From IMG/VR virus record IMGVR_UViG_3300010388_000318, positions 14,190 through 78,189 of that record: 64,000 nucleotides of DNA; one strand, written 5' to 3'. Origin of the DNA: a virus (Duplodnaviria; Heunggongvirae; Uroviricota; Caudoviricetes). The notes beneath the pieces are model-generated. The model was not told where the DNA came from. It saw nothing but the letters and a program-made list of their open reading frames with translations, and made no database searches. The position numbers were made by a program, and so were the translations under genes. How positions within the stretch are numbered: the first letter of the stretch is position 1; every line of letters starts with the position of its first letter. Below, one piece after another: positions 12,437-55,758 of the stretch.

Positions 12437-14491
12437 TTAAAATTGTAACACAAGCTTGACAACTTCTGTCTGATTAGCTGCACGTGTGATTGGGTTTAGA
12501 TTTTCCAAATAGAGAATTTCTCCACTGTCTGGGATCAATTCTCCGTTATATTTATTAGACACAATAAAGTACGAATTTGAAGTCATACCCTTAATCGTAC
12601 CATCAGAATTCTGGCTTGCAGTGAGGAAAGAATTCTTGACATTGGTTACATACATGGTATCATCAAGACCACCAACACTATCTACAATAGAATGGAAGAA
12701 TGCTTGTGGCTGTGAGAAACCTTCTACGCTTTCTTGTACAACAATTTCATCTTCGATAAATCCAGCTTGACTTACACTACCAACAAACTTGGTAAGCTGA
12801 TTGAAACCGCTAAATTCGTCTGCATCTCTTTCGTTGATGAATACGAATGGACGAGCAACTGTATTAGCAGCCGCTGTACAGAATGATTCCGAACCAATGA
12901 TGTTTGAGCCGATACTTAGATTTCTGGCTGCTACATTTGTCATGTTCAATTGGTTCAATGTGTATGATGTAACTTTACCGTATAGATCAGTTTCTACTAG
13001 AGTGATTGCACAGTTTGATGCAACAAATGTTGATGGCGATGTTACCTTCAATACGTTGTTCGCAGCAATTTCAGAAACAGTAGCAAAGAAGTTATCGAAA
13101 CCATTATTGATGATGATCTTGTCATTTACTCTCAATGCTTCTTCGAAGTTTACGCCAGAAGAGTAAACAACGTTATTTGCGGTTATTTGTACAGAACCAG
13201 ATAGCTTGATTGGCTTATAGCGATATACATCCTCACCAATAATAAACTGTCCAACAGTCTTTGACGTGTCCAGTAGTACAGTAACATTGGCATAGAGTGG
13301 GTCTTTGATAACGCCAAGTGTTCTATAATCATTACTTATTGAGAGTGGTGTTTCATCACCAATCAAGAAAGTATTGATGCCAACATATCTTGCATACAAT
13401 TCATTATTTACATTTAATCCATGACCGCCCTCTGGTGAAAGAATAACTCTCAGTGAAGCGTCAATAGTGACAGGCACAATATTATCTACCTGAATAGTAG
13501 CAATAGCAGAACGATATCCAGAACCAGCATTTAGGATTTCAACCTTGCTAATCGAATTCGCACTGGTAGGATCAATGATAGCACGAGCATAGCATGTAGT
13601 AGTACTTGTTCCGCTTGTGTCATATACGAATACGTTTGGATAGATTTCATACGTATCACCCGGCTTCACTACACCATTAAAGCTGCTTTCCAGTGTGATG
13701 ATCTTTTTATTTCTTTCCACATCAAATTCATAGTCTGTGATAACTCTGAACTGATTGGCTGCTTCACCAGATGTAATTTTTATAATACATCCGTTGTAGA
13801 AATTGTCAAGGCTTGACGCACTTAGTCCGATACCGTATAATAGAGAGTTCTCACCAATACGAACGCTTTCAAACTCACCTTCTGGAATATAGTTGTCGTA
13901 TCCTCTACCGCTATCGTCAATGCTGATAACATCGATAGAACCAGCAGACGCACCAGCAGTAACAGCAGGATCAATCACGACAGGCATATAGTCAACTGTT
14001 GCAAACTTAATCATAGTGTATTCGTCAACAGAGAACATGTACTTCCAGATATACCCATCACTTGGTGTTTCGAATGGATCGATATCTGTACCGTATGGTT
14101 CGACAGTTGACTTAGCGCCGTAGTTGTTGAACAGGCACTTGTAGACATAGATGAATGTGCCTGAGTTAACGGCAACATAGAATTTCTTATCAGACAAACC
14201 ACTATCGATATCATCGTACATATCATAGACAGTATCAACTGTCCAATCATAACGACGAATCATATTGGTCACATCATTGTACTTGACTCTCTTACCAAAG
14301 ATCATATCATTGTAAACATCGATCTGTGCTTTGGTCGTGTCTGATGGCATAGGAATGATGGAATCCCCATTTGCATACGGTGTATGCTTCGCAGTAAATA
14401 CGTAGTAGCTTGAATCCCTTTGTACACTAAGTACAAATGATTCGGCTGCTTCGACATTAAGTTTTTTCGTGGCGATTTGTTTTGTGCTCAT
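12437..14491 (-). CDS. baseplate/structural protein (684 aa)
   Basis: Intact ORF between the gp7-like and 1473-aa genes. Confidence 0.5.
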   Translation of the reverse strand: MSTKQIATKKLNVEAAESFVLSVQRDSSYYVFTAKHTPYANGDSIIPMPSDTTKAQIDVYNDMIFGKRVKYNDVTNMIRRYDWTVDTVYDMYDDIDSGLSDKKFYVAVNSGTFIYVYKCLFNNYGAKSTVEPYGTDIDPFETPSDGYIWKYMFSVDEYTMIKFATVDYMPVVIDPAVTAGASAGSIDVISIDDSGRGYDNYIPEGEFESVRIGENSLLYGIGLSASSLDNFYNGCIIKITSGEAANQFRVITDYEFDVERNKKIITLESSFNGVVKPGDTYEIYPNVFVYDTSGTSTTTCYARAIIDPTSANSISKVEILNAGSGYRSAIATIQVDNIVPVTIDASLRVILSPEGGHGLNVNNELYARYVGINTFLIGDETPLSISNDYRTLGVIKDPLYANVTVLLDTSKTVGQFIIGEDVYRYKPIKLSGSVQITANNVVYSSGVNFEEALRVNDKIIINNGFDNFFATVSEIAANNVLKVTSPSTFVASNCAITLVETDLYGKVTSYTLNQLNMTNVAARNLSIGSNIIGSESFCTAAANTVARPFVFINERDADEFSGFNQLTKFVGSVSQAGFIEDEIVVQESVEGFSQPQAFFHSIVDSVGGLDDTMYVTNVKNSFLTASQNSDGTIKGMTSNSYFIVSNKYNGELIPDSGEILYLENLNPITRAANQTEVVKLVLQF

Positions 14492-34260: not shown

Positions 34261-34959
34261 TTAAGTTCGATAGACAAATAGTCCATCGCTCTTATTTATA
34301 CTTTCTGTATTTGCAGAAACATAGATTGAGTCCATGCCTGAAATGTTTGAAAGTGTGTATCCAAGTTCTGCCATGAACTTCTGGTTCTCTGATGTAGAGA
34401 ACCTTTCTGCGATGATGACAGGCTTGAATTTCTGAATGGTTGCCTTGGCACCCATAATAGCGTATTGCTCAAAACCTTCTACATCAAGTTGAATCAGATT
34501 GCAAGCATCTAATCCAAGACTATCGATAGTGAGCATAGGAATTTTGAATTCGTCGGTAGCAGGACCAATCTGGTTCATACCAACATTCATGTCATTACCA
34601 CCCGGTGCAGCACGACGAATACCAACAAGACCATGACCATGACCTAGTGCTGCATTCAGCTTTACTACATTATCGGATTGACAATTATTGACCATGCAAT
34701 AGAATGCAAGTGGTTCTGGTTCGAAAGCATAGACATGCTTGAACTTGCGTGAATAGAAACGTGCGTACATACCACAATTGGTACCCGCTGTGACAACTGT
34801 ATCGAATTTGTCTAGATGTTCAAAGTACTTTGTGCTATGATTCTCAAGCCAATCGTTCTTTGGTCCTTCAAAGGCTCCTGTGTCGCCCTTGATCCAATAC
34901 CAATTGGTTTCGCCATCGATAGCAACATCACGTACTTCGACATTATCACTGTACATCAA
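34261..34959 (-). CDS. FkbM-family SAM-dependent methyltransferase
   Basis: NLIQLDVEGFEQ matches the FkbM signature (IKIDVEGAE). Inserted between gene 32 and gene 59. Confidence 0.65.
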   Translation of the reverse strand: MMYSDNVEVRDVAIDGETNWYWIKGDTGAFEGPKNDWLENHSTKYFEHLDKFDTVVTAGTNCGMYARFYSRKFKHVYAFEPEPLAFYCMVNNCQSDNVVKLNAALGHGHGLVGIRRAAPGGNDMNVGMNQIGPATDEFKIPMLTIDSLGLDACNLIQLDVEGFEQYAIMGAKATIQKFKPVIIAERFSTSENQKFMAELGYTLSNISGMDSIYVSANTESINKSDGLFVYRT

Positions 34960-38072: not shown

Positions 38073-38581
38073 TTACACTTCTGTAGTGCTTTTTCTTTTG
38101 CCTCTACAAGCGTATTGAAGGATTTAGACGTACCACCAGCATCAGGGTGATATACCAAAGACATTTTACGGAATGCCTTCTCTACAGCAGTCCTGTCATT
38201 CGTAGGCATCATACCAAGCACGTGCCAGATAGATGATGCAGTCTTCTCTACGATCTTTTCACGCACTGTTGTAGGAAGGTTCAGACGATGGATAGAAAGA
38301 TAGTTGTCCTTTCTCCTACCGTCCTTTGTTCTCATAGTGAGAGTGATCATCTCACCATTATCGCTCTGTGTGAACGAAAGATCAGGCCATACAAACTCTG
38401 GTTCTTTGTGATTGAACATTAAGAACGCAAAAGTCATAATCATGGCCATAATGAAAAACATGAAGCCAGATTGTGGAAACATGAAGTGGGTAAAAGCAAG
38501 AAGGGGAGCAAACCCCATACCAATAAGATATGATTTCATTTCACAAATCCTCATAATAAAGTGGTGGGATTCTGTTTCCAC
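38069..38581 (-). CDS. membrane-anchored J-domain (DnaJ-like) protein
   Basis: C-terminal KAFRKMSLVYHPDAGGTSKSFNTLVEAKEKALQK has the HPD J-domain motif; N-terminal hydrophobic helices. The true start is probably an internal Met (MKSYLIG...). Confidence 0.55.
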   Translation of the reverse strand: METESHHFIMRICEMKSYLIGMGFAPLLAFTHFMFPQSGFMFFIMAMIMTFAFLMFNHKEPEFVWPDLSFTQSDNGEMITLTMRTKDGRRKDNYLSIHRLNLPTTVREKIVEKTASSIWHVLGMMPTNDRTAVEKAFRKMSLVYHPDAGGTSKSFNTLVEAKEKALQKCK

Positions 38582-38916
38582 GCTCCCACCGGGCGCATTT
38601 GAATTAAGCCGCTAGGGCGAATTCAACAGAGCTATTGTCGTTAGCTGCATTTACGTTTTGTGGCGCTTTGCCAGTCAATCAGTCTCGAACCGCCTTATTC
38701 CGTTCCAGTCGATCCTAGTTCACCCCCATCATAGACACTGGTCATCAGTTTCTGTTTCCCATTCTAGAAACTGCCTCTAACGCATCATGGGAATGTGCGC
38801 CAGTGTCTATGGTGGAGGTGACGGGTACTGCCCCCGTGTCCTCAGAACCTTTATTGTTGATCGTCAACAACTGATAACTCTATTTAGTATGATTCGTTTC
38901 TCAAGTCAACTCTTTT

Positions 38917-40309: not shown

Positions 40310-40387
40310 TGGTGCTCTGTGTGGGATTCGAACCCACGACGACAGAATTTTAGAGATTCCCGCTCTGACCAACTGAGCTAACAAAGC
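40310..40387 (-). tRNA. tRNA with anticodon CUA (amber-suppressor type); CCA encoded
   Basis: Minus-strand cloverleaf: GCTTTGT-TA-GCTC-AGTTGGTCA-GAGC-G-GGAAT-[CTCTAAA]-ATTCT-GTCGTC-GTGGG-TTCGAAT-CCCAC-ACAGAGC-A-CCA. U33 and A37 present; anticodon C34-U35-A36. Confidence 0.6.
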
Positions 40388-40584: not shown

Positions 40585-40797
40585 TTACTCCATTCCTAGA
40601 TGTTCACGAAGTGCTTGTTCGTCGATATCGCTCATACCGATCATTGGCTTTGACCAATTGCAAATTTCCTGAACAAGAAGTTTGGCAAACACATCAAGAT
40701 CAAACTCCCAATAAAGGTGTCCTCTGACCTTTGCTCTATCTTCAATCTCTTTAAGAGTCACAATCCAACCCCTTGGTTGAACTTCTTGATGAACCAA
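40585..40797 (-). CDS. hypothetical small protein (70 aa)
   Basis: Small ORF; overlaps the ligase gene end. Confidence 0.3.
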   Translation of the reverse strand: MVHQEVQPRGWIVTLKEIEDRAKVRGHLYWEFDLDVFAKLLVQEICNWSKPMIGMSDIDEQALREHLGME

Positions 40798-41813
40798 GGA
40801 CGTGCTTCGTTAGCAATTGCGCTACCAAGCTTCTTAGGATCGATCTGGCTAGCCACAATGGTATCCATCTCTTCCTTAAGAACGTCATTGTATACCCAAC
40901 GAATGAAGTCACCCATGCTCTTCATTTCAAAGGGCAGAAGCTGTTCACGTACTAGGTTGTCCAAGCCCTGTTCAAGACGTGCTTCAGTGACAGTTGCAGC
41001 GACGAAAGCCCTAATGTTTTCGACAGCCTCAACATCCACAGCAGCGAGAGTACGTACCTTTGAAACAGAATGCTTTTCACCCTTGACCTTAAACCAAGTA
41101 CCGGAGTCATTCCATCCTTCAGATACACATGTCCATACAACGCCTTCACCGATTCCAGAGACCCCGAAATACTTTCCAACTGGACATTCATTTTCAACTG
41201 CCTCTGTAATTTCGATCATCTTGTTCTGAGCAATCTCAGGGAACTTGAAGTCGATATCTGCTTCCCAAGTTGGGAATGTGTCGATGTTGAATACACCATC
41301 TTCAGGAAGATGGATATCAAACTCACCAACAGGCAACCAATGAGTAGTATCATCAGAGAGGACAGCCTTGACAGCAAACACAACAAACATCTTAGGAAGT
41401 TGTGAAAGTGCAACACCCTTCTGAATACCACTACCACACCATTCGCCAAAGATGGCGATCTTCTTGATGGGTACGTGAGGAATCCAGATTTCGCTCATAG
41501 CCTGATTGACAACATCACGCCAAATAGATTCATTCTTCATTTGATGAAGCATGAAACCAGCGTTATCCTGTGTCAAAGACAGCACACGCTCACGAGACTG
41601 AAATGTGAAGCTATCAGTGTCAACATCATACACGATACCAGCATTGGTACCATGAAGCTTTACAGTGCCACGAAACTTCAGTGTAGGGAGAGGCTTAGAT
41701 GCATCATAGATAGCATCGCCATTCTCATCCTTACCAGCGTAACGGGTGTGTGTTTGTACGTGACGAATCACATTACGAAATTGTTCAACGCTAGGAAATT
41801 TAATCATTTTCAC
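40758..41813 (-). CDS. RNA ligase, Rnl2 family
   Basis: Motif I KFRGTVKLHGTNAGI (KxHGxN, as T4 Rnl2 EKIHGTNFS); nucleotidyltransferase-like layout; located near tRNA genes. Confidence 0.6.
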   Translation of the reverse strand: MKMIKFPSVEQFRNVIRHVQTHTRYAGKDENGDAIYDASKPLPTLKFRGTVKLHGTNAGIVYDVDTDSFTFQSRERVLSLTQDNAGFMLHQMKNESIWRDVVNQAMSEIWIPHVPIKKIAIFGEWCGSGIQKGVALSQLPKMFVVFAVKAVLSDDTTHWLPVGEFDIHLPEDGVFNIDTFPTWEADIDFKFPEIAQNKMIEITEAVENECPVGKYFGVSGIGEGVVWTCVSEGWNDSGTWFKVKGEKHSVSKVRTLAAVDVEAVENIRAFVAATVTEARLEQGLDNLVREQLLPFEMKSMGDFIRWVYNDVLKEEMDTIVASQIDPKKLGSAIANEARPWFIKKFNQGVGL

Positions 41814-42450: not shown

Positions 42451-42804
42451 TTATGATTCGTGTTTGGTCAAGAGGTTTTTTGCTCTTTCTTTTACCCATG
42501 GGTCAAAAGGCAGAAAAGCACCAGATGCTCCTGTCCAATCGGCAAAGGCTTCATCATAAAAACCAATCTTTTTTGTCATACCCAAGGTGTTCCACATTTC
42601 CTGTAGAGACACCAATTCATCAGCCCATTGCTGCCACTTATCATCAGGCACAACATTGTCATCCATGTGATAGTAGATATATGAATGAACCAGCATTTGA
42701 ATGCGGCGCTGACGAATCTTTTCAGATAACGTCTGCACCGCATTCACCATAGGGTCTTCAGGTTCGTCTTCAAGAAAGTCCAAAAGTGACACGGATTTCC
42801 TCAA
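42451..42804 (-). CDS. hypothetical protein (117 aa)
   Basis: Intact ORF. Confidence 0.35.
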   Translation of the reverse strand: MRKSVSLLDFLEDEPEDPMVNAVQTLSEKIRQRRIQMLVHSYIYYHMDDNVVPDDKWQQWADELVSLQEMWNTLGMTKKIGFYDEAFADWTGASGAFLPFDPWVKERAKNLLTKHES

Positions 42805-43348
42805 TCAAAGCAGCATCAGTTGAAACAACCCCAAGGCCATGTGAATGCGGGAAGTTCAGCTTAGGAAGGTCAATCTCATTGAAGAAACGACCAACGTCAT
42901 CAGGGAATGAGTATGTGTCATGGAACATGATCAGTCCACCTTCACGGACAAACGGACTCCAAGTCTTATAATCATTGCTCACTGCATCATAGATATGATA
43001 TCCATCAATGTGAAGAATGTCGATAGGCTTATCCCATGTCTTGGCTAGCTCATTGAAGTCTGCCTTGATGATTTCCACATTATCAAACTGATAGGTGTTC
43101 TTGAAACCAACTACCTTGTCATAGGCATTACGGAAACCAGCATTGGCATCACCTTCGAACCAATCAACACCATAAACAGTGCCGATTTCATCCAGAGCAA
43201 ATGCGAATGTCGAGAAACCATAGTCAACGCCAAGGTCAACAGTAGTTGTTGGCTGTAGACGATTGACAGCCCAACGAGCAAAATCGAAGTGACCTGTCCA
43301 TGCAGATAGAATGTTCTTCACTGCATAAATTTTAGCGTTCTTATCCAT
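42770..43348 (-). CDS. class I SAM-dependent O-methyltransferase (CmcI/Methyltransf_24-like), likely sugar-modifying
   Basis: [14 protein letters not shown] ... [13 protein letters not shown] ... GGLIMFHDT pattern; last gene of the rml operon, overlapping rmlB. Confidence 0.55.
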
Positions 43349-44378
43349 TACCTAATCTTTCTCCAAAATATTTCTTATTGCGTAGTGGTTTCCACCACCA
43401 TTCATTTTCTAGATACCAATCAATAGTCTTTTCTAGACCAGTTTCAAATGATTCTTGTGCATTCCAATTAAGCTCATTCTCAATCTTTGAAGGATCAATA
43501 GCATAGCGACGATCATGACCGGGCCTATCCTTCACCATCCTAATCAAATCATGGCGATATACTCCATCATTCATCTTCTTGTCAACAATGGTGCAAATCG
43601 CCTGTACGACCTCTAAGTTGGTGCGCTCTTCACGACCACCAATGCAATATGTTTCACCGACTTCACCATAGATTGCGGCCCTTACCAGTGCTCTTGCATG
43701 ATCATCCACATAAAGCCAATCACGAACATTCTCACCAGTTCCATACACTGGCAGTTCTTTTCCTTCAATCGCATTAAGAATGTTCAAAGGAATAAGCTTC
43801 TCAGGGAAGTGATATGGACCATAGTTGTTAGAGCAATTCGTCACGATGACAGGAAGACCATATGTTTCATGCCATGCCCTCACAAAGTGATCAGACGAAG
43901 CCTTAGAGGCTGAATATGGCGAACTAGGTGCATATGATGTTGCCTCAGTAAACACACCACTATCAAATGGCAAGTCACCAAACACTTCATCAGTTGAAAC
44001 GTGATGTAAAACAAAAAGATTATTTTTTGATTTCCAATAGTGCAGACATGCCTCTAGAAGCTTATACGTACCAACCACGTTTGTATGGATGAAAGCAAAA
44101 GGATTATCGATTGAACGATCAACATGACTTTCAGCAGCCAAGTTCATACAGATATCAATATTATGACCATCAAGTGTCATGGCCATAAGGTTCTCATTGG
44201 CAATATCACCATGCACAAAAACAAAGCGTTCATTGTTTACAATGTCACGAAGAGAATCCATGTTACCAGCATATGTTAGCTTGTCATAGCATACGACATA
44301 ATGTCCCTCTTGGATCAATAGGCGACATACAGCAGAACCAATGAAGCCAGCACCGCCTGTTACTAGAAACCTTATCAT
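43341..44378 (-). CDS. rmlB: dTDP-glucose 4,6-dehydratase
   Basis: [21 protein letters not shown] Rossmann motif, [11 protein letters not shown] catalytic YxxxK, 345 aa typical length. Confidence 0.85.
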
Positions 44379-44905
44379 AATACAATATCCTTGAATAGTG
44401 GTGCGGCTGCATCTTTCTCAGAGATTTCTGATGCTCCTAGAAACGCCCAATCAATGTTAAGATCAGGATCATTCCAAAGGATGGAACCTTCACTTTCCTT
44501 GTTATACACATTGTCTACCTTATAGACCACAACAGCATTAGATGTTAGTGTCATAAAGCCATGGGCAAACCCCTTGGGAATAAATAGCTGCCTAGCATTA
44601 TCTGAAGATAGCACAGCACAAACATGTTGTCCATATGTAGGTGATTCTGGACGAATGTCTACAGCAACATCAAGGATCGATCCCCATGCACAACGAACTA
44701 GCTTTGTCTGTGCGTATATTCCACGTTGAAAGTGAAGACCACGTACAGTACCTATCTTATACGAAATACTTTGATTGTCTTGTACCCAACGAGGCATCTG
44801 CAAATGATCAACATAAACTTCTGAGAATACGCCTCTGTCATCCTTGAATTGAGTAGGCTGTATAATCAACACACCATCAATATGCGTATAATTAAAAGAA
44901 GTCAT
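44375..44905 (-). CDS. rmlC: dTDP-4-dehydrorhamnose 3,5-epimerase
   Basis: 176 aa cupin; [40 protein letters not shown] motifs typical of RmlC. Confidence 0.8.
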
Positions 44906-45773
44906 CGTGATTTGCTTTCTTCACCAGATACGCACCATAATCAGTCTTGCTAAACATTTTTGCACGTTCTAGCACCTGTTCCTGACTCATCCAACCATTG
45001 TTATAGGCAATTTCTTCAAGACATGCAATCTTCATACCCTGCCTACGTTCAATCGTACCAACGAATGAGCTAGCTTCCAATAGGCTTTCATGGGTACCAG
45101 TGTCAAGCCATGCATAGCCATAACCAAGCTTCTCAACACGTAGCTGTTGATTGTCTAGATAAATCTGGTTAACGTCTGTGATTTCAAGCTCACCACGACC
45201 AGAAGGCTTAATCGACTTTGCGATATCCACAACATCATTGGTGTAGAAGTACAGACCAGTTACAGCCCAATTTGACTTAGGCTTTGAAGGCTTCTCAACG
45301 ATAGAGTTTGGACGGCCCTTCTTATCGAAACCAACAACACCGTAGCGTTCTGGATCATCAACATGATAGGCAAAGACGGTTGACTTTCCAAGAGGGAAAC
45401 AACGTGCAGTCTGTAGCTTGTCCCATAGACCATTACCATGATAGATGTTATCACCAAGGATCAAGGCAACATCATCACCACCAATAAACTCTTCACCAAT
45501 CAGGAATGCTTCAGCAATACCTGCGGGAATTTCTTGTTCTGCATAAGTGATCTTGATACCATATTGCGAACCATCACCTAGAAGGTTCTGGAATGCAATC
45601 TTATCACGTGGCATGACGATAATCAAGATATCACTAATACCCGCTTGCATCAGTGTAGCAAGCGGGTAGTAGATCATTGGCTTATCATATACCGGAAGTA
45701 GTTGTTTTGAAATGCTTAGGGTAGCGGGATACAACCTTGTCCCGTTACCAGCGGCCATGATAATGCCCTTCAT
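44892..45773 (-). CDS. rmlA: glucose-1-phosphate thymidylyltransferase
   Basis: [38 protein letters not shown] is the canonical RmlA N-terminus; 293 aa. Confidence 0.85.
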
Positions 45774-45783
45774 AGTGTCTCCA

Positions 45784-46164
45784 TTAGATAATCAAAAGAT
45801 ATGCGATCAGTATATATGTCAGAGAATGAATCAGTTGATCAAATCCCATCAAAATCCAAAATTCATTGTGTGTGTTGGCACCCCAGCCCTTCTTCTTATT
45901 ATACCACATCTTGAACCAGTCCATATGATAATGGATCAAAAATTCAACAACAGCGATCACTCCTGCAATCGGAAATGTGGTGAATAGAAGAAGAATAAAA
46001 AATGTAGCAATACTATGACCGCCTGAGTGGAAGATGCCACCAATATGACCATATGTACCTTTGTTCTGCCACATAAACGGCGGCTGATACAAAAAGTCAA
46101 GAATAAAATGCTTTACTGTCAAAAGCAGCAAAACAAGCAAAATAGCATTAGCTGTCATATTCAA
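45784..46164 (-). CDS. small integral membrane protein with His-cluster motifs (126 aa)
   Basis: Three to four hydrophobic helices; [12 protein letters not shown] and HYHMDW His motifs. Function unknown. Confidence 0.35.
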
Positions 46165-46765
46165 TTCCTAGCGAATCATACAGAGTGGAAATCCACTTGT
46201 TTGCACCATCGTTACGTTCACGTTCCTTAAGAAGCTCAGTCTCGTGATACGTAACATCCTTGTATGCATGTTCCAAAGCTTCTTTGTACTTATCAAGGGG
46301 ATTAGCCTTGCTAAGCGCAGTGAGACGTTCCATGGCATACTTGGTGTCACAGTCATGTCTGATTGATTCGATGATTTGTTCGATCATGAACTTCTTGAGG
46401 TTTTCATGGTCGGGTGTTGGCGGGAACCAGTTGTATGCCTTTTCAAGCATAGCATCATACTTGTTCCTTAGAGAAACTTTCTTGTTGAAATATTCTTGAT
46501 TTGAAGCAGTTTCTTCTGCAATTACCTGCTTACCATAAGCAGTGCGATCATTCACACCCCTCATTGCTTCAAGCTTGGCAACTTCAGCCTTTGCACGAGA
46601 AAGAGCATCAATATGATAGCTACCTTCAATGCCACGAAGCTTTGGCTTTTCTTTACTAGAATTGTCACGCTGATGCAAACATGCACCAAATGCACGTGCA
46701 CAACCTAGAATGTAGTCTTCAAAAGTGATATCATTCTCAATATCAGCAGTGTATCCTGTAGGCAT
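46148..46765 (-). CDS. hypothetical protein (205 aa)
   Basis: Intact ORF; first gene after the tRNA at 46785. Confidence 0.4.
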   Translation of the reverse strand: MPTGYTADIENDITFEDYILGCARAFGACLHQRDNSSKEKPKLRGIEGSYHIDALSRAKAEVAKLEAMRGVNDRTAYGKQVIAEETASNQEYFNKKVSLRNKYDAMLEKAYNWFPPTPDHENLKKFMIEQIIESIRHDCDTKYAMERLTALSKANPLDKYKEALEHAYKDVTYHETELLKERERNDGANKWISTLYDSLGIEYDS

Positions 46766-47449: not shown

Positions 47450-48379
47450 ATGATGCAAAGTTTTAAGAAATTTTTGGAAGAATCTAAGTTCAACAAAGGG
47501 ACTATCATCTTTGCTGAGCCTGTCCATGGTAGCCACTCTAAGCCACCACAACAGCCAAAGCTTATTGATAAAGAACCTGTGCATGGTAAGCATTCTAAGC
47601 CAGTAGGCAAGCTCAAGGAAGATCGTGAAAATCTTTATAATCTTGATAAGGACGGCAATCAACACATAAAAGACTTTATTCGTAAAAACCCTAATAAACA
47701 TCTTGGGGATGATTCTTTTGAAGCGCATCTAACTCTAGACCCAACACGTGAGCATTTTGAAAAAAATCCTCATCATGCATCGCTGAAAAAATATTCAAAG
47801 CAATCATGGGATACCAATAAAGAGTTGATTAATAAGGCTTCAGGAAAGCCTTCTTTATTTGAACCAAAGATTCATGACTCAAAAACAGATATTGAATATA
47901 AGAATGAAAACGCTCAGATTCATAAAGAGCATGTTAATAGTCTAGACGCATCTTTTCATCATCCAAATGCTGTCTTACAACATGACGTGCATGTGTTTCA
48001 TGGAACCAATAAGTTCAATCCCGGTGAAGAAGCCAAGAAGGGTAGCGGTAGAATTACCATACCAACATATCTGTCAACATCGATTGATCCTAGAACAGCA
48101 CATGATTTTGCTGGTACTACTGAGGATTCTCATATCATTCATCTGCACCTTAAGAAGGGACAGAGAGCACATTATCTTGGAAGCCATTCAAACTTTGATA
48201 GTGAAAAGGAAGTGATGCTTCCTAGAAACTCAACACTACAAATTCATCCGACACCAACAGTTACACATAATGGTGATGGAACAAAGACACACATCTGGCA
48301 TGGCCATGTTGTTGGCGAAGCACACCCTGCTCCACGTAGACAAGAACACGACAAAGACCAATTGAAATTTAATTTCTAA
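47450..48379 (+). CDS. capsid-targeted ADP-ribosyltransferase-like protein (Alt-like injected effector), paralog 1
   Basis: N-terminus MMQSFKKFLEES resembles the T4 capsid-targeting sequence MKTYQEFIAE. NAD-binding-type motifs VFHGTN, YLSTS and EKEV; repeats PVHG(S/K)HSKP. Confidence 0.5.
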   Translation: MMQSFKKFLEESKFNKGTIIFAEPVHGSHSKPPQQPKLIDKEPVHGKHSKPVGKLKEDRENLYNLDKDGNQHIKDFIRKNPNKHLGDDSFEAHLTLDPTREHFEKNPHHASLKKYSKQSWDTNKELINKASGKPSLFEPKIHDSKTDIEYKNENAQIHKEHVNSLDASFHHPNAVLQHDVHVFHGTNKFNPGEEAKKGSGRITIPTYLSTSIDPRTAHDFAGTTEDSHIIHLHLKKGQRAHYLGSHSNFDSEKEVMLPRNSTLQIHPTPTVTHNGDGTKTHIWHGHVVGEAHPAPRRQEHDKDQLKFNF

Positions 48380-48389
48380 GGATAATAAG

Positions 48390-49343
48390 ATGAAAACATT
48401 TAAACAATTTATAGAATCAGAAAAAGTGCATACTCCTTCTCAGGAAAAACATTCCAAAAAGTATGTTGAGCCACCTATTGCTAATTATATTCCTTCACAT
48501 GGAAAGCATTCTATTGAAAAAAAATATGTAAAGAATTCTATTGAAAAAAAGTATGTTGAGCCACCTATTGCTAATTATACTCCTTCACATGGAAAGCATT
48601 CTGTACAGGAAGCCAAACTTCCTGAGACGATGGGTCATAAAGAATTTGAATCACACAACCCAAACCCTAAAATTCATCCTACTGTTACGGGTGTGCACGA
48701 GCATCTTGATCCACCAGAAGAAAAATGGAATAGATCACTAAGAAAACATGAAAGAGAAGCTGTTGCAGAATATACAGCATCAAGTGCTAGTACAAATCAT
48801 GAGCTTCTTGAAACTTCTAAGGGAAATCCTTCAAACTTTGAACATAAGCCAGAAGATAGTGCTTGGGATAAAGATTGGAAGGATGGTAATAAAGCAAGAC
48901 ACCATAAAATATTAAAGGGTCTAGACAGTGTTTTGAATAGATCGAGAGTGCCAAGAAACCTTACAGTGTATCATGGTATCAATGCCAAATCAAGTGAGAC
49001 ATTCAACCCCGGCGAACTTGCAAGTCAACATCCCGATAGACACATTAGAATGCCAGCATTTATATCAACTAGTGTCGATCCTGCTATTTCGTCTAGTTTT
49101 GCAAGACCGGAAAAGTGGGAAGGAACTGTAAAAAAACCCACTATCACACACATGCTTCGTATTAATTTAAAGCGTGGACAAAAAGGTTATAGATATGTCG
49201 GTGAACGCTCTTCAATTGCTGCTGAGCGTGAAGGTATTATAAGAAGAAACACTGTATTGAAAATTAGTGAGCACCCCACAGTAGTGCATCATCCAGAAAC
49301 TGGTGGACACATTCATGTGTGGGATGCTCACTTAGTTGATTAA
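48390..49343 (+). CDS. capsid-targeted ADP-ribosyltransferase-like protein, paralog 2
   Basis: N-terminus MKTFKQFIESE; VYHGIN, FISTS and AEREGI motifs collinear with paralog 1; internal 54-bp tandem duplication (48461-48514 and 48549-48602). Confidence 0.5.
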   Translation: MKTFKQFIESEKVHTPSQEKHSKKYVEPPIANYIPSHGKHSIEKKYVKNSIEKKYVEPPIANYTPSHGKHSVQEAKLPETMGHKEFESHNPNPKIHPTVTGVHEHLDPPEEKWNRSLRKHEREAVAEYTASSASTNHELLETSKGNPSNFEHKPEDSAWDKDWKDGNKARHHKILKGLDSVLNRSRVPRNLTVYHGINAKSSETFNPGELASQHPDRHIRMPAFISTSVDPAISSSFARPEKWEGTVKKPTITHMLRINLKRGQKGYRYVGERSSIAAEREGIIRRNTVLKISEHPTVVHHPETGGHIHVWDAHLVD

Positions 49344-54605: not shown

Positions 54606-55520
54606 TTAATCTCTTTTGTCGTTCTTATCGCCATCAATGAGTTTCAAACCATATTCATTGATTTGATTCTGTGGGATAAAACTTGCTTTCCTCTTTAACT
54701 GATTATTCTTAAAAGGACTATAGTCCACATGATGATGCCAGCGATTGAACTTCCATACAACAGATGCCACATCAGGATATGTATCTGCTAGCATCTTAGA
54801 CTTAGCAAGAGTGCCTTCAACTTCATAGAAGTCTTTGCTGTTGCCGCCGCCCATACGTTGAGTAGTGACCTTACCTTGTAGGAAAGCATTCAACTGAATA
54901 GTCGCCCATCCAGCAGACAATGCATCCAAACACAAGATAGTATCTTCATTGTAACGACCACGCCATTTGAATGGTATGTCATTACGAATAAGAAGGCAAG
55001 AGTAAATTCTTGTGTTCAATGTATATGGTCTAGCTTTAGCATCACTCTTACAAAAAGAATAATAGTTGAAGCCAGCAATCGCTAGGTTTTCATACCTGTC
55101 AACGAAATCCTCAGTCGCTACAAAGTTAACATTTGTCCTCATAGGAGTCTTCATGTTTCTATTTAGACGATGGAAGTCATCAAGATTGTCATCAAGAACC
55201 CAATGCCATGCATGACCTTCAGATACAGAATGTTCCCATGCAAAGTTACGTGCAGGACCCGGTCCAGTACTCTTAGTCAATCCAAGATCATCAAGTACCT
55301 CATACTCTTCCTTGTACTTCTTAGGAAGGATTAGAAGCTTCTCAGCACCAACAACCTTAGCATATTCGTCAAACTCTTCTTCCTCTACGATAACCCTGAA
55401 AGGAACGCCAAGTCTATTCAGCGCCCTATTGGTTAGCATATTGGTATATCGACCTTTCGATACGATATACACAGGATAACGGTTTTCACGTCTATTCTTG
55501 TATCCAACGTTTTGCAGCAT
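54606..55520 (-). CDS. hypothetical protein (304 aa) with DxD-like WVLDDNLDD motif; possible nucleotide-sugar transferase
   Basis: Intact ORF. The glycosyltransferase call rests only on the DxD-like motif and the genomic context, so it is weak. Confidence 0.3.
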   Translation of the reverse strand: MLQNVGYKNRRENRYPVYIVSKGRYTNMLTNRALNRLGVPFRVIVEEEEFDEYAKVVGAEKLLILPKKYKEEYEVLDDLGLTKSTGPGPARNFAWEHSVSEGHAWHWVLDDNLDDFHRLNRNMKTPMRTNVNFVATEDFVDRYENLAIAGFNYYSFCKSDAKARPYTLNTRIYSCLLIRNDIPFKWRGRYNEDTILCLDALSAGWATIQLNAFLQGKVTTQRMGGGNSKDFYEVEGTLAKSKMLADTYPDVASVVWKFNRWHHHVDYSPFKNNQLKRKASFIPQNQINEYGLKLIDGDKNDKRD

Positions 55521-55758
55521 TTTTGCCTCGCTCTAGTTCTGGATACCAAGCACTCTTAGTCTTTGGTGTCAATTTCTGACCAATCAACTTAGAAAAAGCA
55601 TCTAGGTCTTCTTGGTTTTCGAAACGAAAAATAATCTTAGCGAATGGTGGTTTACTTTCCTGAACAAATTCAGGCATATCAACCCATTCGTTTGTTGTTG
55701 GCTCTTCCTCCTGAAGAGTCTCTTCAGTATCATCAAACCATTTTTCTAATGATGGCAT
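55492..55758 (-). CDS. small acidic hypothetical protein (88 aa)
   Basis: Intact ORF; acidic N-terminus. Confidence 0.3.
   Translation of the reverse strand: MPSLEKWFDDTEETLQEEEPTTNEWVDMPEFVQESKPPFAKIIFRFENQEDLDAFSKLIGQKLTPKTKSAWYPELERGKNAAKRWIQE

Follow-up and report, generated by a model that had tools for sequence, protein, structure and literature searches.

The rmlA-rmlC-rmlB operon

The IMG/VR virus record IMGVR_UViG_3300010388_000318 (Caudoviricetes) carries, within the 64,000-nucleotide stretch analyzed here (positions 14,190 to 78,189 of the record, hereafter the window), a compact set of dTDP-6-deoxyhexose genes, rmlA, rmlC and rmlB, followed by the gene of a stand-alone methyltransferase that we call MT24 (Table 1). 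With genes for gp32, gp59 and gp6/gp8-type baseplate wedge proteins, the window is that of a T4-like myovirus. A preliminary description made from the sequence letters had named the three rml genes, and their boundaries are exactly as given there, and each of the three scores above its NCBI equivalog cut-off: RmlA scored 448 bits against TIGR01207 (cut-off 360.65; residues 2-285 of 293), RmlC 202 bits against TIGR01221 (cut-off 155.75) and RmlB 472 bits against TIGR01181 (cut-off 365.1), with Pfam concordant for all three. RmlA aligns over its full length to E. coli RmlA (PDB 1h5r, E 7.8e-118) and has near its N terminus the GxGTRL nucleotide-binding motif, the counterpart of which in the E. 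coli enzyme reads GGSGTRLYP. His63, Lys73, Tyr133 and Asp170 of Salmonella RmlC (PDB 1dzr) are all identical in the alignment with the phage protein, and the GxxGxxG, Thr-Asp-Glu (TDE) and YxxxK (YSASK) elements of RmlB align to those of PDB 1bxk. Because the matches are at equivalog level and the active sites are intact, the phage enzymes are predicted to make dTDP-glucose, dTDP-4-keto-6-deoxy-D-glucose and its 3,5-epimer.

The genes overlap by 14 nt (rmlA/rmlC), 4 nt (rmlC/rmlB) and 8 nt (rmlB/MT24), the methyltransferase ATG lying over the rmlB stop codon in the last of these (ATGGATAA). The operon had been called fused, which holds for the overlapping reading frames but not for the proteins, which are separate. 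From this layout, the rml array and the methyltransferase would be translationally coupled. No terminator-like site was found within the four-gene array in a scan whose yield was not above shuffled expectation, and the same was true of the matches from sigma-70 promoter and terminator scans in general. The rml genes belong to a long co-directional block of early-type genes (~33 to 64 kb) and are probably transcribed along with it; gp32, gp59 and a UvrD-type helicase are nearby in this replication/early region.

Table 1. Genes and RNA features discussed in the text (positions in the window)
Feature	Position	Strand	Basis and remarks
rmlA, glucose-1-phosphate thymidylyltransferase, 293 aa	44892-45773	-	TIGR01207; Pfam NTP_transferase 3.7e-67
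rmlC, dTDP-4-dehydrorhamnose 3,5-epimerase, 176 aa	44375-44905	-	TIGR01221; PDB 1dzr E 5e-50
rmlB, encoding dTDP-glucose 4,6-dehydratase, 345 aa	43341-44378	-	TIGR01181; PDB 1bxk E 5.5e-134
MT24, O-methyltransferase, cation-dependent type, 192 aa	42770-43348	-	Pfam PF13578 Methyltransf_24
GT25-type glycosyltransferase (N-terminal) + O-methyltransferase (C-terminal)	60575-61831	-	Pfam Glyco_transf_25 + Methyltransf_24
TAGT-family glycosyltransferase, 304 aa	54606-55520	-	Pfam PF20691; phrog_842 6e-48
Small open reading frame (ORF), 88 aa, over the TAGT start in another frame	55492-55758	-	Conserved partner; no Pfam/PHROG match
FkbM-family methyltransferase, between gp59 and gp32	34261-34959	-	Pfam Methyltransf_21 5.9e-11
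DUF3307 membrane protein, directly upstream of rmlA	45784-46164	-	Pfam DUF3307 6e-06; phrog_2470 membrane protein 2e-18
Conserved 205-aa protein	46148-46765	-	phrog_8905 (function unknown); located before rml in each of the three related phages
Stand-alone Nlig-Ia domain (NAD+-binding Ia domain, LigA-type ligases)	42451-42804	-	Pfam 4e-25
Two-piece (permuted) transfer-messenger RNA (tmRNA), alphaproteobacterial type	38560-38913	-	Rfam RF01849 88.5 bits, RF04321 97.5 bits

Conservation of the operon among phages

The rml operon recurs at the same site in two related IMG/VR contigs, L099 and L100, in each case after the 205-aa protein, which is syntenic there and 69-77% identical. Relative to the window, the L099 proteins are 97% (RmlA), 81% (RmlC) and 80% (RmlB) identical, and those of L100 96%, 72% and 76%. 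In L099, rmlACB is followed by the methyltransferase (95% identical), and the DUF3307 and Nlig-Ia genes are missing. In L100, part of a 99-kb contig, rmlACB is followed directly by Nlig-Ia; the methyltransferase and DUF3307 genes are absent, the latter being present in the window only. The site by the UvrD-type helicase that is occupied in the window by the TAGT-family glycosyltransferase and its small partner ORF has no TAGT in L100, where genes for an LpxH-like phosphoesterase, a TilS-like protein and tRNAs are found instead. The L100 contig does keep the fusion of a GT25-type glycosyltransferase to an O-methyltransferase (GT25-MT) at 72% identity, within the 72-73% seen in both relatives. 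Thus, in both genomes that could be scored, rmlACB is accompanied by the GT25-MT fusion, while the methyltransferase, TAGT and DUF3307 genes come and go. Conservation across the region is a mosaic (RmlA 96-97%, MT24 95%, RmlC 72-81%, RmlB 76-80%, flanking genes 65-90%), which suggests either recombination within the operon or an unusually strong constraint on RmlA.

In GC content, third-position GC content (GC3) and codon usage, the rml genes are in line with the rest of the phage; their relative synonymous codon usage (RSCU) correlation is 0.84-0.87, where the mean for the window is 0.81. RmlA homologues from bacteria or other phages reach only ~60-64% identity at best, and a metagenome search with RmlA gave, among the matches listed, only bacterial-type proteins at <=64% identity. 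Since even the best bacterial RmlA is only ~64% identical, the acquisition of the genes appears to be old, and their phage-typical codon usage together with their recurrence in two related phage contigs speaks against recent host-derived morons, an origin that the preliminary description had named as one that would undo its proposal.

Locus views, which span ~10 kb either side of a match, were compiled for 80 RmlA and 80 TAGT loci. In many phage contigs RmlA is a lone gene, RmlB, RmlC and RmlD all being absent within 10 kb (L173, L177, L178 and ~35 further IMG/VR loci, L138-L172), and in several T4-like contigs this lone gene lies directly between gp32 and UvsW. Such contigs point to dTDP-glucose or thymidine-nucleotide handling as a role of its own for RmlA.

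The stand-alone methyltransferase

The operon had been described as ending in a Methyltransf_24-like enzyme of the CmcI type. The family assignment stands (PF13578, E 1.8e-20, 74.2 bits against a gathering score of 26.3); the CmcI label does not, as PF04989 fails to match MT24 and PF13578 is its sole Pfam family at E <= 0.01. A few MT24 homologues have weak precomputed PF04989 or PF05711 matches. The motif VDLGVDYG, used as the test for S-adenosylmethionine (SAM) motif I, is invariant in 45 homologues. The best match by sequence (E 2.9e-7) is MeT1 of Mycobacterium hassiacum, a sugar 1-O-methyltransferase (PDB 6g7d/6g80), which is also the best match by fold (PDB 6g80, E 1.7e-12, TM 0.77) for an AlphaFold2 (AF2) model with a predicted local distance difference test score (pLDDT) of 95.8, though the two proteins are only ~20% identical. 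Next in rank, and close, are TrmR, which O-methylates 5-hydroxyuridine in tRNA, and COMT-like enzymes, so that the ranking does not fix the substrate class. On the strength of these comparisons, MT24 is an O-methyltransferase, probably acting on a sugar hydroxyl.

The MT24 family comprises 350 clusters at E < 1e-5 and is common in contigs of T4-like phages, as a ~190-aa gene without rml in its vicinity (including L093-L098). Nine of 10 IMG/VR homologues lack neighboring rml genes, and adjacency to rml was seen only in the window and L099; the coupling of MT24 to rml is a local arrangement, not a conserved feature of the rml module. Homologues also form the C-terminal domain of glycosyltransferase (GT2) fusions within the glycosyltransferase clusters of several 220-250-kb phage contigs, and an MT24-type C-terminal domain occurs in a glycosyltransferase fusion of Synechococcus phage S-SRM01.

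Other sugar-handling genes in the window

The window had also been said to encode a GT25-methyltransferase fusion, an FkbM methyltransferase and a possible DxD transferase, and we recovered all three. For the fusion, both Pfam domains and the fold agree. The GT25 domain scores 28.9 bits against PF01755 (gathering score 24) over only 35 residues, and homologues carry precomputed PF01755 annotations. In a Foldseek search with the AF2 model (pLDDT 93.7), the N-terminal domain matched the human collagen (hydroxylysine) galactosyltransferase GLT25D1 (PDB 9evk, E 3.5e-7) and the C-terminal domain COMT-like, cation-dependent O-methyltransferases (E ~1e-7); a sequence-level PDB search with TAGT and GT25-MT returned nothing useful. 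Among glycosyltransferases, the GT25 domain is similar to those for lipopolysaccharide and for protein O-glycosylation. The two-domain architecture is common to ~90 clusters on phage-sized contigs, and we found no counterpart in cultured phages. In concept, the fusion and the GT2-MT24 proteins of relatives recall the O-methyl-rhamnose-cap enzymes A064R of chlorovirus PBCV-1 and WsaE of Geobacillus, multidomain proteins that pair 6-deoxyhexose transfer with O-methylation and use UDP- or dTDP-L-rhamnose for protein-linked glycans; the likeness is one of layout only.

Two candidate links between MT24 and the fusion were rejected. MT24 shows no significant similarity to the C-terminal domain of GT25-MT, of which it might have been a copy, and a methyltransferase beside the fusion in L195 is TylF-like and not an MT24 orthologue. 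The genes flanking GT25-MT, at 59294-59932 (-) and 62205-62909 (-), have no Pfam match and are 83-91% identical in relatives; in the product of the first, the stretch GAGLD recalls SAM motif I, and the second belongs to phrog_36119, of unknown function. The FkbM gene has the same position in L003 (55% identity).

The possible DxD transferase can be placed more specifically, in the TAGT (TET-associated) family: it scores 162.4 bits against PF20691 (gathering score 27.5) over profile positions 1-205 of 205. Among its members is the T2/T6 beta-glucosyl-HMC-alpha-glucosyltransferase, and solitary members, with no role assigned, occur in many phages (PMC13216743, PMC13390438), with a solitary TAGT reported in 288/753 phage genomes (PMC13216743). 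The window thus resembles the T-even DNA glycosylation system in being T4-like and having a TAGT member, and differs in lacking gp42, gp56 and alpha/beta-glucosyltransferases (alpha/beta-GT), its TAGT being solitary. Direct comparison of the window TAGT with the T6 enzyme gave a BLASTP E of 0.14, with only a W-x-x-D-D motif shared, and an hhalign probability of 1% from a shallow profile (Neff 1.9).

IMG/VR holds 363 relatives of the window TAGT, and their recurrent neighbors in other phages are recombination and replication genes (RecA-like, DnaB-like, ERF, YqaJ, NinB). Within 10 kb, RmlA or RmlC occurred at 0 of the 80 TAGT loci, and TAGT at 0 of the 80 RmlA loci. An apparent RmlB-like gene by TAGT in L014 was set aside as a 26%-identical short-chain dehydrogenase/reductase (SDR) 4.5 kb away, with RecA-like and DnaB-like genes directly downstream. 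An overlapping ORF of ~85 aa lies upstream of TAGT in 74 of the 80 loci (L011-L090), and a few have the two as one fused protein (401 aa in Aeromonas phage 65; also L059 and L069-L071). The small ORF and TAGT are either a conserved two-subunit enzyme or a case of programmed frameshifting.

Searches for RmlD and for base-hydroxylation genes

That no RmlD reductase is visible in the window was upheld by tblastn with two RmlD queries (E <= 1e-3). Likewise, none was found in L091, L099, L100, L182, L183, L277 and L320 (tblastn, E <= 0.01), where only the Rossmann fold of RmlB was matched. One of the rml matches, ‘Acinetobacter phage MD-2021a’, was used solely to supply an RmlD query, as its record looks bacterial (aspS, glnE and ilvE as neighbors). 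The preliminary description had called for a search of the rest of the genome, and this could be extended in part: four IMG/VR scans (L182/L183, L277 and L320) cover ~35 kb of relatives' sequence to the right of the window, whereas the ERR1597337 contigs (ENA/Logan) from which the window derives are shorter than it and add nothing on that side. This flank has no RmlD, gp42, gp56 or thymidylate-synthase (TS)-like gene; it holds NAMPT, NadR-Nudix, HEAT-repeat proteins, homing endonucleases, a small adenine-methyltransferase-like gene, RNA ligase and PNK-like genes.

The absence of a nucleotide hydroxymethylase from the window is also borne out. Neither gp42, gp56 and beta-gt of T4 (tblastn, E <= 0.01) nor the CMP-hydroxymethylase-like gp182 of Sphingomonas phage PAU (see below) has a homologue in the window or in the ~35 kb flank, and neither region has a TET/JBP enzyme, gp42-type hydroxymethylase or primary alpha/beta-GT. 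From translations only, two further observations can be made in L320: an RNA-ligase-like gene (970-1599 and 2379-2957) is apparently split by a homing-endonuclease-like ORF (1601-2254, -), and positions 48-572 encode the small adenine-methyltransferase-like protein, with an NPPW motif.

Comparison with known rml systems

Against the bacterial RmlABCD pathway (rfb/rml of Salmonella and E. coli), the window enzymes are equivalog-level, alignable over their full length and retain the catalytic residues, but the reductase is lacking, the gene order is A-C-B, the genes lie within a T4-like early gene array and an O-methyltransferase follows them. Phage rml genes have been noticed before, virulent coliphages with RmlA and RmlB being listed simply as carriers of auxiliary metabolic genes (AMGs) (PMC6969025). 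Phi92-like coliphages (Justusliebigvirus/Phapecoctavirus) are likewise lytic myoviruses with RmlA, RmlB and RmlC in a nucleotide-metabolism region, and their Rml proteins are 45-60% identical to those of the window. Unlike the window, they encode RmlD (Phi92 gp064), and no MT24, TAGT or GT25-MT partner is annotated in them. Their rml clusters have been proposed to serve DNA glycosylation (Olsen et al. 2020).

Sphingomonas phage PAU (NC_019521, 219 kb) offers a parallel in a cultured phage. At 131-141 kb of its genome (locus L323), gp182 is followed by gp183 and gp184, both of unknown function, and then by RmlB-RmlC-RmlA (gp182-gp187 in all). The gp182 protein belongs to the thymidylate-synthase family, and its best solved relatives are CMP 5-hydroxymethylases (E 2e-16). 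The whole PAU genome has no RmlD; it encodes a gp56-like dCTPase/dUTPase and a separate thymidylate synthase, gp25. PAU DNA migrates 26% slower than unmodified DNA (PMC5646251) and is partly modified at cytosine with a bulky group of undetermined chemical nature (PMC5646251, PMC7824862). PAU thus resembles the window in having an RmlD-less rml triad among DNA-metabolism genes of a lytic myovirus, and differs in its CMP-hydroxymethylase-like gene and modified cytosine, no hydroxymethylase being seen in the window. It also lacks TAGT, MT24 and GT25-MT. The two have only the three Rml proteins (41-57% identical) in common.

The phage and its probable host

No close relative of the window was found among GenBank phages by megablast, and among cultured phages Caulobacter phage Cr30 comes closest in gp6 (40% identity). 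The lineage is one of uncultured freshwater T4-like phages. Its host is probably an alphaproteobacterium, because the permuted tmRNA is of the alpha type and the nearest cultured phages are Cr30 and phiM12. ARAGORN gives the tmRNA tag peptide as AANDNSSVEFALAA.

Proposed function of the rml module and alternatives

We propose that rmlACB is a working, long-resident nucleotide-sugar module of this phage lineage. It would take glucose-1-phosphate and dTTP through dTDP-glucose and dTDP-4-keto-6-deoxy-D-glucose to the 3,5-epimer, dTDP-4-keto-6-deoxy-L-mannose, and the reduction of the 4-keto group to L-rhamnose or 6-deoxy-L-talose would fall to a host RmlD/Tll-type reductase or to a phage gene outside the window. 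A phage-encoded glycosyltransferase would then use the activated 6-deoxyhexose, and the GT25-MT fusion is the best candidate because it is the sole sugar-handling gene that stays with rmlACB in L100, where TAGT and MT24 are missing. The product would be an O-methylated 6-deoxyhexose on a putative non-DNA acceptor, either lipopolysaccharide or capsule of the host or a virion protein; decoration of the envelope would block superinfection or re-adsorption. MT24 would contribute another O-methyl group, on a sugar hydroxyl, as an optional addition and not a core step. Of the original proposal, the analysis bears out the RmlA, RmlC and RmlB set without RmlD, which is intact and phage-adapted, the O-methyltransferase directly downstream and the further sugar-handling genes elsewhere; nothing supports methylation at the stage of the nucleotide sugar rather than of the sugar once transferred.

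A non-DNA glycan on the host envelope or the virion, made through the co-inherited fusion, is the reading that we tentatively adopt, at somewhat less than even confidence, and as acceptor we lean slightly towards such a glycan over DNA. O-methylated 6-deoxyhexoses are common in the lipopolysaccharides of alphaproteobacteria, and FkbM- and MT24-type enzymes, like O-methyl-6-deoxyhexoses, are typical of bacterial surface glycans; the probable alphaproteobacterial host fits an envelope target. NDP-sugar and glycosyltransferase clusters of large phages have been read as serving surface-polysaccharide modification (Iyer et al. 2021, PMC7824862).

Several points weigh against a glycan acceptor. The rml and GT25-MT genes are 15 kb apart, and their co-inheritance comes from two genomes only. 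A virion target is disfavored because the glycosyltransferase and methyltransferase genes lie among early and replication genes, not structural ones, and no collagen-like or Ser/Thr-rich virion acceptor for the GT25 domain was found. To our knowledge, the GT25 enzymes characterized so far use UDP-sugars, not dTDP-sugars. In addition, the same window has a bona fide member of a DNA-glycosyltransferase family in TAGT, and PAU ties an RmlD-less rml triad to modified cytosine (PMC5646251).

These last two points lead to DNA hypermodification, which the preliminary description had offered speculatively and which we regard as possible but doubtful. Here TAGT or another enzyme would place the dTDP-6-deoxyhexose on a hydroxymethylated or hydroxylated pyrimidine, perhaps followed by O-methylation, shielding the genome from restriction and CRISPR. 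Membership of the window glycosyltransferase in PF20691 and phrog_842, the RecA-like, DnaB-like, ERF, YqaJ and NinB neighbors of its homologues and the replication/early setting of the rml genes are all in keeping with this. In PAU, moreover, gp182 stands two genes from RmlB-RmlC-RmlA in a genome with a gp56-like dCTPase/dUTPase and without RmlD, and its slowly migrating DNA has modified cytosine (PMC5646251); the same idea was advanced for the coliphage clusters (Olsen et al. 2020). What tells against DNA as the acceptor is that L100 keeps rmlACB with the phosphoesterase, TilS-like protein and tRNAs in place of TAGT, that TAGT and rml never occur together across the 80 TAGT and 80 RmlA loci, and that homologues of gp42, gp56, beta-gt and PAU gp182 are absent from the window and the ~35 kb flanks. 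Similarity of the window TAGT to the T6 enzyme was not detectable, pairwise or by a shallow profile (BLASTP E 0.14; hhalign 1%), and only the Rml proteins, at 41-57% identity, link the window to PAU. T-even DNA glycosyltransferases use UDP-glucose rather than a dTDP-sugar, and we know of no characterized phage DNA glycosyltransferase with a donor other than a UDP-sugar. A more specific form, in which the RmlD-less triads of the window, its relatives and PAU supply a 6-deoxyhexose for DNA containing 5-hydroxymethylcytosine or 5-hydroxymethyluracil (hmC/hmU), with the solitary TAGT as the transferase and the O-methyltransferases methylating the sugar, we consider unlikely.

Rather improbable, in our estimate, is that the rml genes are AMGs without a dedicated phage transferase, which would sustain or redirect host dTDP-sugar and dTTP pools, either maintaining envelope-glycan synthesis of the host or using the reversible reaction of RmlA to buffer thymidine nucleotides; in that case the methyltransferase nearby and the glycosyltransferases would have other, unrelated tasks. 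The many phage contigs with RmlA alone, some beside gp32 and UvsW (L173, L177), the listing of coliphage RmlA and RmlB as AMGs (PMC6969025) and the independent variation of MT24, TAGT and DUF3307 among relatives would suit such a role. Against it, the phage encodes a number of transferases and methyltransferases of the glycan type, for which a donor is needed, and a defined product is suggested because three tightly coupled genes were kept over long divergence. RmlC without a reductase yields an unstable, unfavored intermediate, a poor device for managing pools. A recently captured host cassette (moron), unexpressed or non-functional, is very improbable: the rml genes are typical of bacterial O-antigen loci and relatives have a mosaic neighborhood rich in homing endonucleases, but their codon usage and GC cannot be told from those of the phage as a whole, even the nearest bacterial homologues share just ~60-64% identity, three diverged phages have the operon in the same place, no catalytic residue is lost and the genes have translational-coupling overlaps.

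Phage rml genes were known from phi92-like coliphages, PAU and metagenomic phages, filed as AMGs without a demonstrated role. New here is that an uncultured T4-like lineage has an A-C-B operon lacking RmlD, in which the rml genes are coupled to an O-methyltransferase gene, and has besides a solitary TAGT and a GT25-O-methyltransferase fusion. If the glycan on the host surface is the acceptor, the module would amount to envelope remodeling by a lytic T4-like phage. If DNA is, this would be a new hypermodification chemistry of relevance to restriction and CRISPR evasion and to enzymatic DNA labeling; in the more specific form given above, it would be a new chemical class, the first to draw on a dTDP-sugar as donor and to involve a deoxysugar and an O-methyl sugar. 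The PAU finding turns what was vague speculation into an idea that is directly testable on a cultured phage.

Other features of the window

Just downstream of the methyltransferase, the Nlig-Ia gene has its likely start at an ATG at ~42750, and an RNA-ligase-family gene (40758-41813, -) is close to it. Two tandem paralogous ADP-ribosyltransferase (ADPrib_exo_Tox) genes, at 47450-48379 (+) and 48390-49343 (+), lie on the strand opposite to all their neighbors and are missing in L100.

At least 17 tRNA genes are dispersed singly among the protein genes, rather than clustered, from 40 to 64 kb, including those at 40310-40387 (-) and 63865-63937 (-). One, an amber suppressor, has a CTA anticodon and is labeled ‘Pyl’ by ARAGORN; another is an odd ARAGORN prediction with the four-base anticodon cgaa, and Rfam adds a further tRNA at 62128-62199. 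The gene at 58739-59254 (-) encodes a 171-aa protein, conserved in relatives, with a weak match (E 3e-5) to the alternative ribosome-rescue factor ArfA, and its presence alongside the tmRNA hints at phage manipulation of ribosome rescue.

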